This document shows, in pieces, positions 19,563-28,641 of a DNA stretch of 64,000 nucleotides (the stretch's first letter is position 1; every line of letters starts with the position of its first letter). This stretch comes from Minisyncoccia bacterium (GTDB lineage: Bacteria > Patescibacteriota > Minisyncoccia > UBA6257 > JAAZHW01): positions 909 through 64,908 of the forward strand of contig JBFEPE010000002.1 of NCBI GenBank assembly GCA_041550235.1. The letters are read 5' to 3'. The position numbers and the translations under genes are program-made. Below the pieces are notes generated by a model. The model was not told the DNA's origin. It was given only the letters and a program-made list of their open reading frames with translations, and did not search any database.

Positions 19563-20138
19563 ATGAAAAAAGAAAAGCAATTAAATATTAAAAGAGTTTT
19601 TGTATTTATAGATGCTTCTAATGTTTGGAGTATTGTTAAATCAATAAAGAGGTTTGTTGAATATAAAAATCTTGAAAATTATTTTAAGAAAAAATTTAAT
19701 GCAGAGAAAATTAAAATATTTTATTATGATGCCTATCCAAAAAATGGGACGAGGAAATATAATTTAGATGATAAGCACAAGTTTTTTACTTATCTCAAAA
19801 AAGGATTAGGTTTTATGGTGGTTAAAAAAGAATTAAAAAGAATCTCTGTTGTTAGTGGGGATAGCGAATCAATAATTGAAAAAGGGAATATGGATGTTGA
19901 AATAGTCATTGATGCTATTCACAATTTAAATAAATATGATATTGCGATTTTATTTAGTGGTGATTCTGACTTTTTAGCTTTGATTAATTATTTAAAAAGC
20001 AATCAAAAAAAAGTTTATATATATTCATCAAAAGATAATATCTCACAGGAATTAAAAACAGGGGGAGATGGTTATTTCGATTTGAAAAATATAAATGAAA
20101 TTTGGGGCAAGGAATTAAAGCATCGCAAGAACTTATAA
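19563..20138 (+). CDS. NYN-domain (LabA-like) protein, putative RNase
   Basis: VFVFIDASNVW .. NMDVEIVIDAIH .. ILFSGDSDFLALI are NYN/PIN-like acidic motifs. Confidence 0.65.
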   Translation: MKKEKQLNIKRVFVFIDASNVWSIVKSIKRFVEYKNLENYFKKKFNAEKIKIFYYDAYPKNGTRKYNLDDKHKFFTYLKKGLGFMVVKKELKRISVVSGDSESIIEKGNMDVEIVIDAIHNLNKYDIAILFSGDSDFLALINYLKSNQKKVYIYSSKDNISQELKTGGDGYFDLKNINEIWGKELKHRKNL

Positions 20139-22014: not shown

Positions 22015-22253
22015 TTTTGATAGATTTTTTTGGGAGGTGGGGATAATAGAATCACAATGATTAAAAATTTCTTTAAATATTATTAAAATCCCTCCCCGCC
22101 CCTTCGGGGCGGGGAGGGATTTGCTGTTTTTGTTCGCCTCAATATTAAAAATCAAAATATATGCCATTAAAAAATATTATTGAAACAACATAAATGCTTC
22201 CCCCCGCCGTAGGCGGAGGAAGATTCGCCTTACTTATCTTATAATCAAAAAAT

Positions 22254-22412: not shown

Positions 22413-22421
22413 TGATTGATG

Positions 22422-22494
22422 AGCCGAAGGCGAGAATTGAACTCGCGACCTCTGCTTTACGAAAGCATTGCTCTACCAACTGAGCTACTTCGGC
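22422..22494 (-). tRNA. tRNA-Thr(CGT)
   Basis: RC: GCCGAAG-TA-GCTC-AGTTGGTA-GAGC-A-ATGCT-TTCGTAA-AGCAG-AGGTC-GCGAG-TTCAATT-CTCGC-CTTCGGC-T. Confidence 0.85.
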
Positions 22495-22643
22495 GATTTT
22501 TTATGATTATATTTTTTTGTGGCATTGTTGCAAGATGCTTTTTTAAATCACTACATTATTCCCGCCCCGCAAGGCGGGGCGGGGGGCACCTCTTTTTTTC
22601 AAAATCTCAAAATTATTATAACCTATTATATAAATAATAAAAA

Positions 22644-23075: not shown

Positions 23076-24791
23076 ATGAATAAATTAATAAAAGATTCTT
23101 TCGTCTTGTCTAATCTAAACAAAGTCAATTCGCCTGATTTGAAAAAAATTAGACAAAATTTATCTAAGGAAATATTAAGAAATAGAAAAAGAAATGGGCT
23201 TTTTTCTCAAAATGCCGGAGAAAATTTTGCCATCTTTACCGCCCTTTGCCAAGGCGACCGAGATTTTTTCAAAACAAAAGATTTAGCGAAGATATTGAAA
23301 TATCTCACATCTTTAGAGGTTGAAGAAGGTGGTCCTTACTTTACTTCCCTTGAAGAAAAAAAGATTGATTTGGGGATAAATTGCCAAATCGGATGTTTCT
23401 TAAATTCTTACGAAGTTAATCTTTCAAAAATAGATGAGTTGGTGGAAGATGCAATAGACTCAAATAATTATGATTCAGATTTTTACTCAAACCCCCACAT
23501 TGTTATTTATCTTATTTCAAATTTCTATAATGGCTCTAAAAAAGAAAAATTAAAGAAGCAGATTTTAAAAAGAATAAAGGGCAATATTGAGAGATTGAAT
23601 TTGTCATTGCTCTGTTTGTCATTGTTCAATTTGGGTTATAGAGATAAAAAATTTAAAAATATTTGTCTATTTGACGAAAACGAAGATTCTAAATCAGATT
23701 TTGAATCGTCTTTTTGTTTTTTGTTAAAAAATAGAATAAACAAAGAATATTCTGAAAATATAGAGGGTGAGAGATTAAAAAGAGAAAAAGAACAGAGCGA
23801 AAAAGAAGAAAAGAGAATGATGGATAAAATTTTAATTTTGGCAAAAAAAAGATTTTCTTCTTTGCCAAAGGAAATGAGGGAATTATCAATGAAGCAAATA
23901 AAGAGAACGATGAATGGTAATTTTGATAAACAAATGCCGTTGATTAGTTATTATTTTAAAAAAGCGATAGGCAAAAGAGGGGAGTCAATCTCTGAGGATT
24001 TTATAGCAGAGGTGGGATTGATAAATACTTTTTTCTGGACTGCCTTTATTATTTATGATGATTTTTGGGACGAAGATGAAGAAAGAAATCCTCAAATATT
24101 GCCAGTGGCGAATTTATTTGCAAGGGAGATGAATAATTTTTTTGCCAAGTTTTTTGATAACAATAAAAACGGCTTTGGCAATTTTTATTCATCATTATTT
24201 GATAAGTTGGATGCAGCCAATAATTGGGAAACGATTCATTGCCGGGCTGAAATAAGGGATGGAAAATTCATTATTCCCGATAAGTTGCCGGATTACAAAA
24301 ATTATGAGAAAAAATATGAGCCGGCGGCTGCTCATATATTGGGACCAGTATTGATAATGAAAAAAATTGGTTTTTCTGAGGACAGCAGGGAAATGAGATA
24401 TTTGATTGATTATTTTAGAAATTATTTAATAGCGATGCAGATGAATGATGATGCTCATGATTGGAAAGAGGACTTAAATCGCGGTCATTTAAGCACGGCG
24501 GTTGTTTTGTTAATTAAGGATTTTTTGAAAAAATATCCAGACAAAAAAGAGATTGATTTGAGGGATGATATTGAAAAACTTCAAGAAGTTTTTTGGTTTG
24601 AGACAATGCCGGTTATTTGCGAGAGGGCAATTAAGTATTGCGAAAAATCAAGAAGAGCGATGCTGAAAATGGATTTCATTGAGGATTATAAGCCATTAGA
24701 AAAATTTATTAATATCCCCGAGGGAGCGATGATAGAGGCTCAAGAAAAGCAATCAGAATCAAGCGAATTCATTAAGGAGTGGAGCAGTTAG
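23076..24791 (+). CDS. 571-aa protein with isoprenoid-synthase-like metal-binding motifs (DDFWD and NDDAHDWKE about 134 aa apart) after a ~300-aa N-terminal region of unknown fold
   Basis: IIYDDFWDEDEE (DDxxD) and MNDDAHDWKEDL (DDxxD / NDxxHxxxE) are spaced as in class I terpene synthases and trans-prenyltransferases. The family assignment is inference only. Confidence 0.4.
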   Translation: MNKLIKDSFVLSNLNKVNSPDLKKIRQNLSKEILRNRKRNGLFSQNAGENFAIFTALCQGDRDFFKTKDLAKILKYLTSLEVEEGGPYFTSLEEKKIDLGINCQIGCFLNSYEVNLSKIDELVEDAIDSNNYDSDFYSNPHIVIYLISNFYNGSKKEKLKKQILKRIKGNIERLNLSLLCLSLFNLGYRDKKFKNICLFDENEDSKSDFESSFCFLLKNRINKEYSENIEGERLKREKEQSEKEEKRMMDKILILAKKRFSSLPKEMRELSMKQIKRTMNGNFDKQMPLISYYFKKAIGKRGESISEDFIAEVGLINTFFWTAFIIYDDFWDEDEERNPQILPVANLFAREMNNFFAKFFDNNKNGFGNFYSSLFDKLDAANNWETIHCRAEIRDGKFIIPDKLPDYKNYEKKYEPAAAHILGPVLIMKKIGFSEDSREMRYLIDYFRNYLIAMQMNDDAHDWKEDLNRGHLSTAVVLLIKDFLKKYPDKKEIDLRDDIEKLQEVFWFETMPVICERAIKYCEKSRRAMLKMDFIEDYKPLEKFINIPEGAMIEAQEKQSESSEFIKEWSS

Positions 24792-24822
24792 ATTATTTAA
24801 AAATGATGTATAATATAGATAT

Positions 24823-27195
24823 ATGGATAAAAGTGTGGTAAAAAAATATATTGACTCTCAAAAAAATAAAGCAGTTGAAATGCTTGATTTTGATAATGAA
24901 AAAATAAAATACTCTGATTTAATTAAACAACACAGGGAAATAAAGAATTTTAAGGGAAATGAAGAAATTGTCCGAGCTTATTTATTGTCTAAACTTTCAA
25001 ATGAATTGGGATACAAATTGGAAAATATTGAGATAGAGAAAGAGTATAATCTTGGAAGACCAAAAACAAATAAGCCGAGAATTGACTTAATTGTTCGGGA
25101 TGATGAGGGAAACGCTTTTTTATATATTGAAGTGAAAGGTCCTAATGAATTTGAGAAAAATAAAGATGAAGTAATTGAAAAACAATTATTTGGTTTGGCA
25201 TCTCAAGAAAAAGGACAGGGTAAAAATATAAAATACCTTGTTCTTTATTCAATTGATGTGTTAGGTGAAAAAATAAAAGACAAAGTGGTAATTATTGATT
25301 ATGAAAAATATCCATCTTTTGACAAGTGGGAAGAAGAAAGGAATTTCACCGATGAGTTGCCAAAGAGATATGGCAATGCTCAAAAAGAGCCATATAAGAA
25401 AGGAGGAAAAAAGGATTTGAGAACTGATTTTGCAAATGAAGAATTAGAGGCAAAAAGAAAAAATCTTCATAATGTTTTGTGGGGTGGCGGAGGAACTGAT
25501 GACAATGATATATTTTCTTCATTAGTTAATATAATTTTGGCTAAGATTCAAGATGAAAGAGAAAGAAAAAACGGCGAAAAATATCAATTTCAAATTTTTT
25601 CTTTTCAAGATGGGGGTAGTTTTGAAAGTAATGAAGAAATTTTTGAAAGAATAAACAAACTTTACAGAAGGTCATTGAAGGAAATAATGTATATGACAGA
25701 CGAAAAAGAAATAAACGAAAGTTTTATAATTGACAAAAAGAAGTTTTCTTTGAATAAATTAAAATATACCATTCAAGAATTGGAGGAATATTCATTTATT
25801 GAGGGAAGAAGTAGTTTGGGCGGAAGGGATATTTTGGGCCAATTTTTTGAAGGTATTGTGAGGGACGGCTTTAAGCAAAATAAAGGTCAATTTTTTACTC
25901 ATTCCAATATTATTAAGTTTATTCTTTATACCCTTCAATTAGATAAATTAGCGATAGAAAAAATAAATAAAGATAAGGAAATTCCTTATTTGATTGATCC
26001 ATCGGCTGGAAGCGGGACATTTTTAATTGAATATATGAATTTCATCACTGAAAATATAAAAAGGAAATATAGGGATAAGTTGGATAATAATTTTAATATT
26101 AAAGAAAGGATAAATGATTGGATGCCTGATGGGAGGGAAAATAAATGGGCAAAGGATTTTATTTACGGAATAGAGCATAATTTTAATTTAGGAACTGCCT
26201 CAAAGGTAAATATGGTTTTGCACGGTGATGGCTCTACTAATATTTTTGTCAAAGATGGTTTATTGCCATTCAATTATTATAAAAAAGAAAATGGAATAAA
26301 TATTTTAAAGAATTCGAAGGATGATGAAAAATATTTTGATAAAAGCATTAATGGAAAATTTGACATTGTCATTACTAATCCGCCATTCTCAGTAGATTTA
26401 GACAAGGACACTAAAAAAACATTAAAAGATAGTTTTGTTTTTGGGGATAAGAAAAATTCGGAAAATCTTTTTGTGGAAAGGTGGTATCAATTATTAAAAG
26501 AAAATGGTCGGCTGGGAGTAGTTTTGCCCGAGAGTGTTTTTGATACCGCAGAAAACAAATATATCAGATTATTTTTGTATAAATACTTTAAAATAAAAGC
26601 AGTCGTTTCTCTGCCTCAGTTAGCATTTCAGCCATATACTTCAACTAAAACAAGCTTGCTTTTTGCCCAAAAGAAAACAAAGAAAGAAATTGAAAAATGG
26701 AATGAATTATGGGCAACTTACTCAAATGATTACAATCAATTAAAAACGAGAGCAGAAAAAGAAGTAGAGCATTTTATTAAGGGAAAAGAAATGGATAAAA
26801 AATGGGCCATCTATAAGGAGACAGAAAAAAAGAGAAAAGACAATATTTTAAGATTATTAATTAATAATATTGATGAGGATGATAAAAATTTATCTCTTCA
26901 AAAATTAGTTGAAAAATATCAAGATGAGATAATCGATTTGTTGAAAATAGAAAAAGAAACGGATGTTTTTGGTTTTGTTAATGCTTGGTGGGTGTTTGGC
27001 AATGTTTCAAAAGAATTGGATTATTCTATTTTTATGGCTGAAGTGGAAAATATTGGTTATAAGCGGACAACGAGGGGAGAAAAGACGACATCAAACGACT
27101 TATTTAGGGTGAATAAAGAAGGCGGGGTTATTATTGATGATGTAAAAAAAGAAACTGCCTTGGATTTTATAAGGTCTGATGTAATATGGGATTAG
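24823..27195 (+). CDS. Type IIB/IIG-like restriction-modification enzyme: N-terminal PD-(D/E)xK nuclease domain fused to gamma-class N6-adenine methyltransferase (BcgI-A-like)
   Basis: N-terminus RIDLIVRDDEGNAFLYIEVKG (D..EVK nuclease motif). MTase motif I LIDPSAGSGTFLIE and motif IV IVITNPPFS. No HsdR in the window. Confidence 0.65.
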   Translation: MDKSVVKKYIDSQKNKAVEMLDFDNEKIKYSDLIKQHREIKNFKGNEEIVRAYLLSKLSNELGYKLENIEIEKEYNLGRPKTNKPRIDLIVRDDEGNAFLYIEVKGPNEFEKNKDEVIEKQLFGLASQEKGQGKNIKYLVLYSIDVLGEKIKDKVVIIDYEKYPSFDKWEEERNFTDELPKRYGNAQKEPYKKGGKKDLRTDFANEELEAKRKNLHNVLWGGGGTDDNDIFSSLVNIILAKIQDERERKNGEKYQFQIFSFQDGGSFESNEEIFERINKLYRRSLKEIMYMTDEKEINESFIIDKKKFSLNKLKYTIQELEEYSFIEGRSSLGGRDILGQFFEGIVRDGFKQNKGQFFTHSNIIKFILYTLQLDKLAIEKINKDKEIPYLIDPSAGSGTFLIEYMNFITENIKRKYRDKLDNNFNIKERINDWMPDGRENKWAKDFIYGIEHNFNLGTASKVNMVLHGDGSTNIFVKDGLLPFNYYKKENGINILKNSKDDEKYFDKSINGKFDIVITNPPFSVDLDKDTKKTLKDSFVFGDKKNSENLFVERWYQLLKENGRLGVVLPESVFDTAENKYIRLFLYKYFKIKAVVSLPQLAFQPYTSTKTSLLFAQKKTKKEIEKWNELWATYSNDYNQLKTRAEKEVEHFIKGKEMDKKWAIYKETEKKRKDNILRLLINNIDEDDKNLSLQKLVEKYQDEIIDLLKIEKETDVFGFVNAWWVFGNVSKELDYSIFMAEVENIGYKRTTRGEKTTSNDLFRVNKEGGVIIDDVKKETALDFIRSDVIWD

Positions 27196-27198
27196 ATT

Positions 27199-28641
27199 AT
27201 GATAAAAAGTTTTATAATACAATTTAAGGATTTGGGTTTTGATAAATTTATCAGAAATAATTTTAGAACATTTAATCTAAAATTGAAGATAGATGATTTT
27301 TTTGTTTCTAATAGTGGATTAAAGTTTATTCGCATTAAAGATATTTTTAATATTATTTCAGGGCTTGCTTTTAAGAGTGATGATTATGAACTAGAGGGCA
27401 TTCCCTTAATTAGAATTGGAGATATTGGCGGTAATTTTAAAAACACAAAATATTTGCCCGAGGAATACGAAAAAATATACAAAGATTTTTTATTGAAGAA
27501 ATTTGATTTAATTGTTGGACTAACAGGGGATGGGGATTTTAAGATTGATTTAATAGATACGGATAATAAATACTTACTTAATCAAAGGGTAGGGGTATTG
27601 CGAGTTAAAAACAAAAGAGAGGATGTAAATATTTTATTTTACTATTATCTTTTGAGATGTCTTAATTTTATTGCGGTTCAATTTAATTATTTTTCTAATG
27701 GCAAAACACAATTAAATATAAGCCCCTTTGATTTATTAAATATAAAAATCCCTCTTATCTCTAAGCAAAAACAGGATGAGGTTGTAGAGAAGATAATCCC
27801 TATTGAAAACAACATCAAGAAATTAAAAAATAAGATAGAAAAACCACAAGACATAATTAATGAAGTTTTTGCCGAAGAATTTGGTTTTGATGTTTTTTTA
27901 TTGAATCAATTTGGGAAAGGAATGACCGCGGGGACACAAAATTTGCCCGATAAAAAATTAAGGATTTTTCAAAGAAATTTTTCTGAATTTTCAAGAAGCG
28001 ATATCTTAAGGTTTTCAACGAGATTTCATAATAATTCAACCAAAAATTTAATGAATTTTTTTAATACAATAGAATCTATAAAAGTAAAAGATGTTGTTGA
28101 TTATTGCGAAAAAGGAGTGCAACCAAAATACAATGAAAATGGGGAGATTCCGGTTATAAAAATAATAAATTTGAAGAATAATCATATTGATTTTTTAGAA
28201 ACTGAAAAAATATCAAGGCAATATTTTAATAAATTGGGTAATAAAAATAAATTAAAATTGAATGATATAATCATTTGTGCTACTGGGAAAATATCACTTG
28301 GAAAAATAGATATTTATGAAAACAAAGAAGATGCTATCACTTCATTAGATAATTATATTTTAAGATTAAGAAATATCTATAATCCATTGTTTTTTACCTA
28401 TTTTTTTAGGTCTATTATGGGCTACTTCCAAATAGAAAGAGACTTCACTGGAACTACAAATCAAATTCATCTTTATTGGGATCAAATTTCTAATTTTAGG
28501 GTCCCCAACATCCCATTATCTCATCAAAATAAAATAGTTGAGAATATAAAATCTCGATTAGATAAACAAGAAGAGATTGAAAAAGAAATAGAGATAGAAA
28601 GAAATAAAATAGACAAAATAATTGAGTTGGTTGTGAGATGA
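27199..28641 (+). CDS. restriction-modification specificity subunit with two target-recognition domains (HsdS/BcgI-B-like)
   Basis: Two TRD halves (LIRIGDIGGNF..LLNQRVGVLRV and VIKIINLKNNHIDF..), each followed by a conserved coiled-coil spacer. Starts 4 nt after the upstream gene. Confidence 0.75.
   Translation: MIKSFIIQFKDLGFDKFIRNNFRTFNLKLKIDDFFVSNSGLKFIRIKDIFNIISGLAFKSDDYELEGIPLIRIGDIGGNFKNTKYLPEEYEKIYKDFLLKKFDLIVGLTGDGDFKIDLIDTDNKYLLNQRVGVLRVKNKREDVNILFYYYLLRCLNFIAVQFNYFSNGKTQLNISPFDLLNIKIPLISKQKQDEVVEKIIPIENNIKKLKNKIEKPQDIINEVFAEEFGFDVFLLNQFGKGMTAGTQNLPDKKLRIFQRNFSEFSRSDILRFSTRFHNNSTKNLMNFFNTIESIKVKDVVDYCEKGVQPKYNENGEIPVIKIINLKNNHIDFLETEKISRQYFNKLGNKNKLKLNDIIICATGKISLGKIDIYENKEDAITSLDNYILRLRNIYNPLFFTYFFRSIMGYFQIERDFTGTTNQIHLYWDQISNFRVPNIPLSHQNKIVENIKSRLDKQEEIEKEIEIERNKIDKIIELVVR

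Follow-up and report, generated by a model that had tools for sequence, protein, structure and literature searches.

Among Type IIB restriction-modification (R-M) systems, the archetypal enzyme BcgI is an A2B complex whose A subunit joins a PD-(D/E)xK nuclease to a gamma-class N6-adenine methyltransferase and whose B subunit carries two target recognition domains (TRDs), with a 2:1 stoichiometry, a bipartite target, and no need of ATP or HsdR (Smith et al. 2013, PMC3592470). BsaXI, from Geobacillus/Bacillus stearothermophilus, is also a Type IIB enzyme and is termed "BcgI-like" in its own literature. Its RM subunit, which combines restriction and methylation, and its specificity subunit (S) alone give activity in vitro, without HsdR or ATP, and it has been re-targeted by TRD exchange or duplication, a 59%-identical TRD having kept its specificity (PMC9159934). 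The two enzymes differ in how their subunits meet. BsaXI-type RM proteins dock S through a "knob", which serves as a cradle for the TRDs, whereas the BcgI group uses an EcoKI-like C-terminal helix, a feature to which BsaXI is the exception among RM+S enzymes (PMC11997821). Here we describe a two-gene locus on a 64,000-nucleotide stretch of DNA from a Minisyncoccia bacterium (GenBank assembly GCA_041550235.1, contig JBFEPE010000002.1, positions 909 to 64,908), referred to as the window, in which an RM gene (24823-27195, + strand) is followed by an S gene (27199-28641, + strand). By its sequence, the pair is a BsaXI-family Type IIB R-M system with BsaXI as its closest known relative, and we consider it very likely that it forms a self-contained two-gene system for phage defence in a member of Candidatus Paceibacteria, within the candidate phyla radiation (CPR).

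The RM and S genes compared with BsaXI and other known systems

A phmmer search of the RM protein against the PDB returned RM.BsaXI (8w0p_A) at E=7.5e-279, with residues 5-764 of the query aligned to residues 7-774 of the chain, while the next sequence matches were Type I M subunits at E of 1e-9 or weaker. Identity to RM.BsaXI is 57% overall (endonuclease, 46%; connector, 57%; methyltransferase, 66%; knob, 51%). A Foldseek search of the RM model against the PDB likewise placed three BsaXI entries on top (8W0P, 8W2P, and 8W2Q; E ~1e-57), ahead of the other structural matches by about 50 orders of magnitude. At this E value, and to an enzyme that is both solved and biochemically characterised, the sequence match is far beyond chance.

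Domain boundaries of RM were taken from Shen et al. (NAR 2025, PMC11997821). The 790-aa restriction endonuclease/N6-adenine methyltransferase opens with a PD-(D/E)xK endonuclease domain (aa 1-188; 24823-25386, + strand, as are all features of the pair given here), which was matched by the Pfam profile HSDR_N_2 (aa 46-108, E=4.7e-9, above cutoff) and includes the segment RIDLIVRDDEGNAFLYIEVKG (aa 86-106). Residues E72, D88, E103, and K105 (codons at 25036-25137) align with E73, D90, E105, and K107 of BsaXI, each of which abolishes cleavage when mutated to alanine (PMC11997821), and none of the four varies across 34 aligned homologues. A multi-helical connector (aa 189-345; 25387-25857; BsaXI 193-348) leads to the gamma-class N6-adenine methyltransferase domain (aa 360-621; 25900-26685; BsaXI 363-625), where Pfam returned N6_Mtase (aa 335-698, E=1.1e-28) and Eco57I. 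Its motif I, DPSAGSGTF (D392-F400; 25996-26022), and motif IV, NPPF (aa 519-522; 26377-26388), are likewise invariant among the 34 homologues. The knob (aa 622-732; 26686-27018; BsaXI 626-742) consists of a long central helix with short helices around it, and the protein ends in a short conserved tail (aa 733-790; 27019-27195) in place of the ~140-aa "paddle" of BsaXI. The AlphaFold2 (AF2) model of RM has a moderate mean predicted local distance difference test score (pLDDT) of 63.9, with ~80 in the nuclease domain and ~88 over knob residues 620-710, where it shows a helix at 620-651 plus short helices. We relied on this model solely for the nuclease domain, the knob, and the absence of the paddle. 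A preliminary description, made from the DNA letters, had proposed a 790-aa nuclease-methyltransferase fusion. The fusion and the motifs quoted for it are present, the suspected nuclease fold at the N terminus is borne out by the four residues essential in BsaXI, and the N6_Mtase, HSDR_N-like, and Methylase_S profiles that were anticipated were all matched in Pfam.

The RM stop codon (TAG, 27193-27195) and the ATG of the S gene at 27199 are separated by a 3-nt gap (TAG-ATT-ATG); the earlier figure of 4 nt holds for the start codon, which begins at the fourth base after the stop, but not for the gap itself. Methylase_S matched the 480-aa S protein in two stretches (E=2.1e-20), and the two halves of the protein resemble each other weakly (25% identity, E=1.8e-5), as expected from a TRD1-CR1-TRD2-CR2 layout, in which CR1 (27730-27890) and CR2 (28504-28641) are the central and C-terminal conserved helices. 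The protein is collinear with S.BsaXI (8w0p_C; residues 100-478 against 102-473, E=8.8e-5), and the similarity is concentrated in CR1 and CR2, both of which align without gaps. Together with the internal duplication and the paired profile matches, this collinearity supports the separate two-TRD specificity subunit of the preliminary description. TRD1 (27235-27729) and TRD2 (27891-28503), variable domains that would read the first and second half-sites, are not significantly similar to the TRDs of BsaXI, and the target of the window S therefore probably differs from the AC-N5-CTCC of BsaXI. It is plausible that the recognition sequence is new relative to BsaXI, as had been proposed. The same TRD pair occurs in several metagenomic S proteins that match the window S over their full length at ~60% identity, and TRD2 matches the S protein of Brachyspira alvinipulli at ~58%. 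The PDB yielded no characterised TRD relatives of S from which to infer the recognition sequence.

Set beside BsaXI as a whole, the pair shares the two-gene layout, the succession of nuclease, connector, methyltransferase, and knob, an unchanged catalytic tetrad (E, D, E, K) as well as motif I and NPPF, an S subunit of similar size (480 vs 476 aa) with CR helices of equal length, and the lack of HsdR or an ATPase. It differs in having no antiparallel two-helix paddle (BsaXI ~775-916, D816 and E823 included), in its TRDs, and in its host, a mesophilic CPR bacterium of 33% GC rather than a thermophilic Firmicute. Of the features of BcgI named above, the domain make-up of the two subunits and the lack of HsdR are shared as well, and the 2:1 stoichiometry, the bipartite target, and the independence of ATP would be. 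However, the published description sets the BcgI group apart by a single helix at the C terminus that packs into a bundle with CR1 and CR2 (PMC11997821), whereas in the window RM the knob is of the BsaXI type and the 58-aa tail is predicted to hold no more than one helix of 8 residues. As modelled, RM is not a member of the BcgI group sensu stricto, a distinction drawn from that description and from a tail modelled at low confidence. The BcgI-like Type IIB architecture first proposed for the pair is thus right in its functional logic, but the closest relative is BsaXI and not BcgI. The M2S core of Type I enzymes such as EcoKI and EcoR124I offers a further parallel in the N6_Mtase fold, the HsdS-like S subunit, and the swapping of TRDs between CR helices. 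It is distinguished by the fusion of nuclease to M in the window protein, by the lack of an HsdR motor, and by cuts that would be expected near the site without translocation.

No HsdR gene was found in the 64-kb window, where the only other open reading frames (ORFs) of at least 750 aa encode FtsK and a class I aminoacyl-tRNA synthetase. Pfam searches of ten other window ORFs returned FtsK, aminoacyl-tRNA synthetase, SecD, beta-CASP RNase, and similar families, and no helicase/nuclease. The same holds for the loci of seven relatives (L001, L002, L003, L006, L007, L008, and L009), in all of which RM is followed by S: no helicase or HsdR lies within 8-10 kb in the six with full flanks, nor on the 8.4-kb contig that carries L001. 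The earlier statement that HsdR is missing holds across all of these loci, and the labels "type I M/S subunit" or "N-6 DNA methylase" carried by relatives should be corrected to those of a complete, HsdR-independent Type IIB enzyme.

The mechanism we propose follows BsaXI and BcgI, from which the stoichiometry, base flipping, two-sided cleavage, spacer length, and self-protection of this pair are inferred. Two RM proteins and one S protein would assemble into an (RM)2S heterotrimer, with the TRDs of S docked in a cradle formed by the knob and the methyltransferase core of RM. TRD1 and TRD2 would recognise the two halves of a bipartite, asymmetric target, one half each, and the half-sites are probably ~5 bp apart (an N5-like spacer), because the lengths of CR1 and CR2 match those in BsaXI. 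Each methyltransferase domain would flip and N6-methylate one adenine, one per strand, with S-adenosylmethionine as the donor, and hemimethylated or fully methylated host sites would be protected from cleavage. On unmethylated phage or other foreign DNA, the tethered PD-(D/E)xK domains would cleave the two strands outside the site, at fixed distances from it, in the presence of Mg2+ and with no requirement for ATP or a translocase. Cuts would most likely fall on both sides of the site, and nuclease domains of different complexes most likely must pair.

Relatives of the pair and replacement of recognition domains in a sister strain

RM relatives occur in Paceibacteria, Gracilibacteria, and other Patescibacteria, and copies at 56-77% identity were found in Gracilibacteria, Lachnospiraceae, Brachyspira, Melioribacteraceae, and other metagenomic contigs. 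The flanking genes differ in every relative's locus except that of the sister strain (L001), and some flanks contain transposase fragments, a HicA toxin, or other R-M genes. Given the constant order of RM and S, the lack of a helicase, and the differing flanks, the pair behaves as a self-contained mobile module. One relative, P0049, is a 1289-aa single-chain RM-S fusion with 66% identity and matches to HSDR_N_2, N6_Mtase, and Methylase_S; it joins the two-subunit and single-chain Type IIB layouts in one family. The preliminary description had called such systems rare in minimal genomes, a view that is not supported for R-M systems in general, given the reported reliance of CPR bacteria on R-M and their high density of defence systems (PMC12455944, PMC12259885), and given the relatives found across Patescibacteria. 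The pair adds a defence system to the genome of a CPR bacterium, a group largely without CRISPR.

In Brachyspira alvinipulli ATCC 51933 (L003, 10001-12369), the RM homologue is frameshifted in its nuclease domain after about residue 133, leaving a 593-aa ORF that comprises connector, methyltransferase, and knob; the 480-aa S gene after it is intact. The frameshift may have given rise in nature to an M+S derivative without a nuclease, or it may be an error of assembly. Two other loci have an additional ORF between RM and S (L006, 10428-11180, 250 aa; L009, 10376-10927, 183 aa). Neither ORF had a Pfam match or BLASTP similarity to S subunits, and they could encode accessory or regulatory proteins or orphan domains.

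The sister locus, on a contig of a Candidatus Paceibacteria metagenome-assembled genome (MAG), carries a 98%-identical RM copy between the same neighbours as in the window, a 571-aa gene (96% amino acid identity) and an RNase H-like gene, which places the window in a CPR/Patescibacteria genome. DNA identity between window and sister locus is 96.8% from the 571-aa gene through RM and the first 36 nt of S, 88.8% in CR1 (L001 5516-5676), and 92.9% from CR2 onward, and the CR1 protein sequences are near-identical. By contrast, neither TRD1 nor TRD2 of the window has a detectable DNA or protein match in the sister locus, where S is 458 aa long vs 480 aa in the window. On this comparison, both TRDs have been replaced between RM backgrounds that are 98% identical, as would be expected of a system under diversifying selection for specificity. 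Given the near-identical RM proteins and the precedent of TRD exchange in BsaXI, the two sister strains almost certainly restrict different sequences with what is essentially one RM protein. The window and the sister MAG would then amount to a natural experiment, in which Type IIB specificity has been reshuffled in nature as Xu and colleagues did in vitro.

Between the two strains, the RM gene as a whole has a dN/dS of 0.11 and its nuclease domain one of 0.18, estimates that rest on 28 synonymous and 14 non-synonymous substitutions. These values fit purifying selection and would argue against a decaying nuclease. A separate pattern is seen at 24000-27000 of the window, where a tract of ~3 kb is 97-99.5% identical to the sister locus while its flanks are 91-94% identical. 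The tract takes in most of RM together with the 571-aa gene's 3' half, and dS is 0.067 in RM vs 0.248 in the 571-aa gene (substitution density, Fisher p = 3e-9), a pattern that points either to recent homologous recombination over this tract or to a sweep of RM between strains.

The short form of RM and alternative explanations

Homology of the window RM ends at aa 764 against BsaXI (916 aa) and at aa 761 against P0241, a 908-aa long form, leaving 26-29 residues in the window protein vs ~142 in the long forms, and the AF2 model shows no long helices beyond residue 742. Five residues of the short tail (D773, L780, D781, R784, and W789) are invariant in the alignment of 34 homologues, and this conservation among short forms indicates a stable architecture rather than a truncation. 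The short form is also dominant among close relatives, as nearly all of the 120 database proteins closest to RM are 774-807 aa long. Clustering at 50% gave 415 representatives with E no weaker than 1e-30, and both forms are present at this level: the short ones measure 790-801 aa and align through to the final residue, and the long ones measure ~900-1020 aa. Shen et al. (2025) had predicted that homologues below 800 aa keep the knob without the paddle (their Fig. 9, "orange" clade; PMC11997821). That clade, with R, H, M, and knob, no paddle, and ~790 aa, shows no architectural difference from the window RM, which is one more member of it, from Paceibacteria and with its own TRD pair. A specialist will find nothing surprising in this, the short clade having been predicted already in 2025.

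The paddle of BsaXI adjoins the cleavage site, and its mutation is severe: E823A abolishes cleavage, and D816A leaves low partial activity only (PMC11997821). With no paddle present, cleavage by the window RM would have to be paddle-independent, which is the main extrapolated step in our interpretation. Several points weigh against that interpretation. Nuclease activity and cut geometry are extrapolated to a paddle-less enzyme from one that needs paddle residues for cleavage, a search of the literature found neither a characterised homologue of the short form nor a methylome motif, the AF2 model of RM is only moderate with a poor methyltransferase core, and the dN/dS values come from small counts. 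A paddle-less variant might assemble and methylate like BsaXI but cleave otherwise, on one side, imprecisely, by nicking, or at high local concentration only. We consider such altered cleavage unlikely, since paddle residues are unconserved beyond the closest relatives of BsaXI, for which reason Shen et al. favour an indirect role, since other Type IIB enzymes cut on both sides without any paddle (PMC11997821), and since the abundant short forms have a nuclease active site that does not vary. It is a related and rather doubtful proposition that short forms as a group use a distinct cleavage mechanism or outcome, such as obligatory trans-dimerisation between complexes, one-sided or imprecise cutting, or a conditional nuclease. 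If true, the abundant short clade would discriminate among the three mechanistic hypotheses left by the BsaXI structures.

It is very unlikely that the nuclease is retained in a non-functional state, with the pair acting as a methyltransferase-only (M+S) system for epigenetic marking or for protection from other nucleases. BsaXI-type enzymes are toxic if they under-methylate, and the frameshift in B. alvinipulli shows that such decay can occur; however, the window ORF is intact, its four catalytic residues are present and invariant in the family, and the nuclease domain has a dN/dS of 0.18. That the pair is Type I-like, with an HsdR encoded outside the window, is scarcely credible even though relatives are annotated as "type I restriction enzyme M protein" or "S subunit" and the best full-length PADLOC models are labelled MTase_I. 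HsdR is missing from the 64 kb, from the surroundings of six relatives, and from the contig of the sister strain, RM carries its own nuclease, and its homologue BsaXI needs neither HsdR nor ATP. We also rejected the reading in which the pair would be a fragment of MADS, the methylation-associated defence system, with RM as MAD2 and S as MAD5, and see next to no chance of it. MAD2 (E=2.2e-52) and MAD5 (E=9.4e-15) were the top NCBIfam matches, and PADLOC reported mad2 and mad5 too, but the scores of 178 vs 720 bits and 54 vs 400 bits lie far under the NCBIfam equivalog cutoffs, the match to BsaXI is overwhelmingly better, and no other mad genes flank the pair, whose neighbours are polyprenyl-synthase-like and RNase H-like genes. 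The paddle-less architecture could help to tell whether the paddle of BsaXI has a catalytic or an accessory role, and the main value of the locus lies in its combination of a natural TRD swap with an enzyme that could settle the role of the paddle.

Expression signals and surroundings of the pair

Directly before the RM gene, an extended -10-like box, TGTATAAT, lies at 24803-24810 (+ strand) and ends 12 nt 5' of the start codon, which has no obvious Shine-Dalgarno sequence. The box may be RM's own promoter, with a very short leader, and it was not listed by the consensus promoter scan because it has no -35 match. That scan was uninformative in general (49 sites vs 41.5 ± 6.5 expected). The region contains 16 terminator-like sites vs 4.1 expected, none of them on the + strand where the 571-aa gene meets RM, RM meets S, or S meets the RNase H-like gene. 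Compared with the ORFs of the window, GC is slightly below average in both RM (0.292, z -1.0) and S (0.257, z -2.0), which is weakly suggestive of a foreign origin. Searches of the window with S and RM (tblastn) detected no extra S cassettes, shufflon, second RM, or S fragment, and exact-sequence contig look-ups for the RM protein and for P0002 returned no match.

The 571-aa gene directly upstream of RM (23076-24791, + strand) encodes a protein that is labelled "hypothetical" everywhere and had no Pfam, NCBIfam, PADLOC, or PDB sequence match. Its AF2 model, which is of high confidence (pLDDT 91.5), has the fold of a trans-polyprenyl diphosphate synthase in the C-terminal ~340 aa (TM ~0.7 to 4jyx), with two invariant Asp-rich motifs, YDDFWDED (aa 327-334) and NDDAHD (aa 457-462), and the N-terminal domain of ~230 aa is all-helical with an invariant E..GGPY motif. 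Relatives of this protein are found across CPR lineages, in 62 metagenomic loci and among 246 database proteins, some of them (P0428, P0431, and P0433) fused to HATPase_c. We asked whether this gene is a third component of the system and rejected the idea, as RM or S was present in none of the 62 metagenomic loci with its relatives. An "empty site" for the insertion was not recoverable, synteny around the 571-aa gene not being kept at 35-52% identity.

Further upstream, a gene for an NYN-domain (RNase-like) protein (19563-20138, + strand) has the lowest GC of the local genes (0.247, z -2.2). A homologue stands directly downstream of the relative of the 571-aa gene in four metagenomic loci (L046, L049, L051, and L065) and ~4.6 kb upstream of it in another (L035), which hints that the two genes were ancestrally adjacent and were split in the window by recA and tRNA-Thr. 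A strong terminator with a 17-bp stem follows recA at 22086-22122 (+ strand), and tRNA-Thr(CGT) lies between recA and the 571-aa gene at 22421-22494 (- strand). The 73-aa ORF listed at 22416-22637 overlaps this tRNA gene and is spurious.

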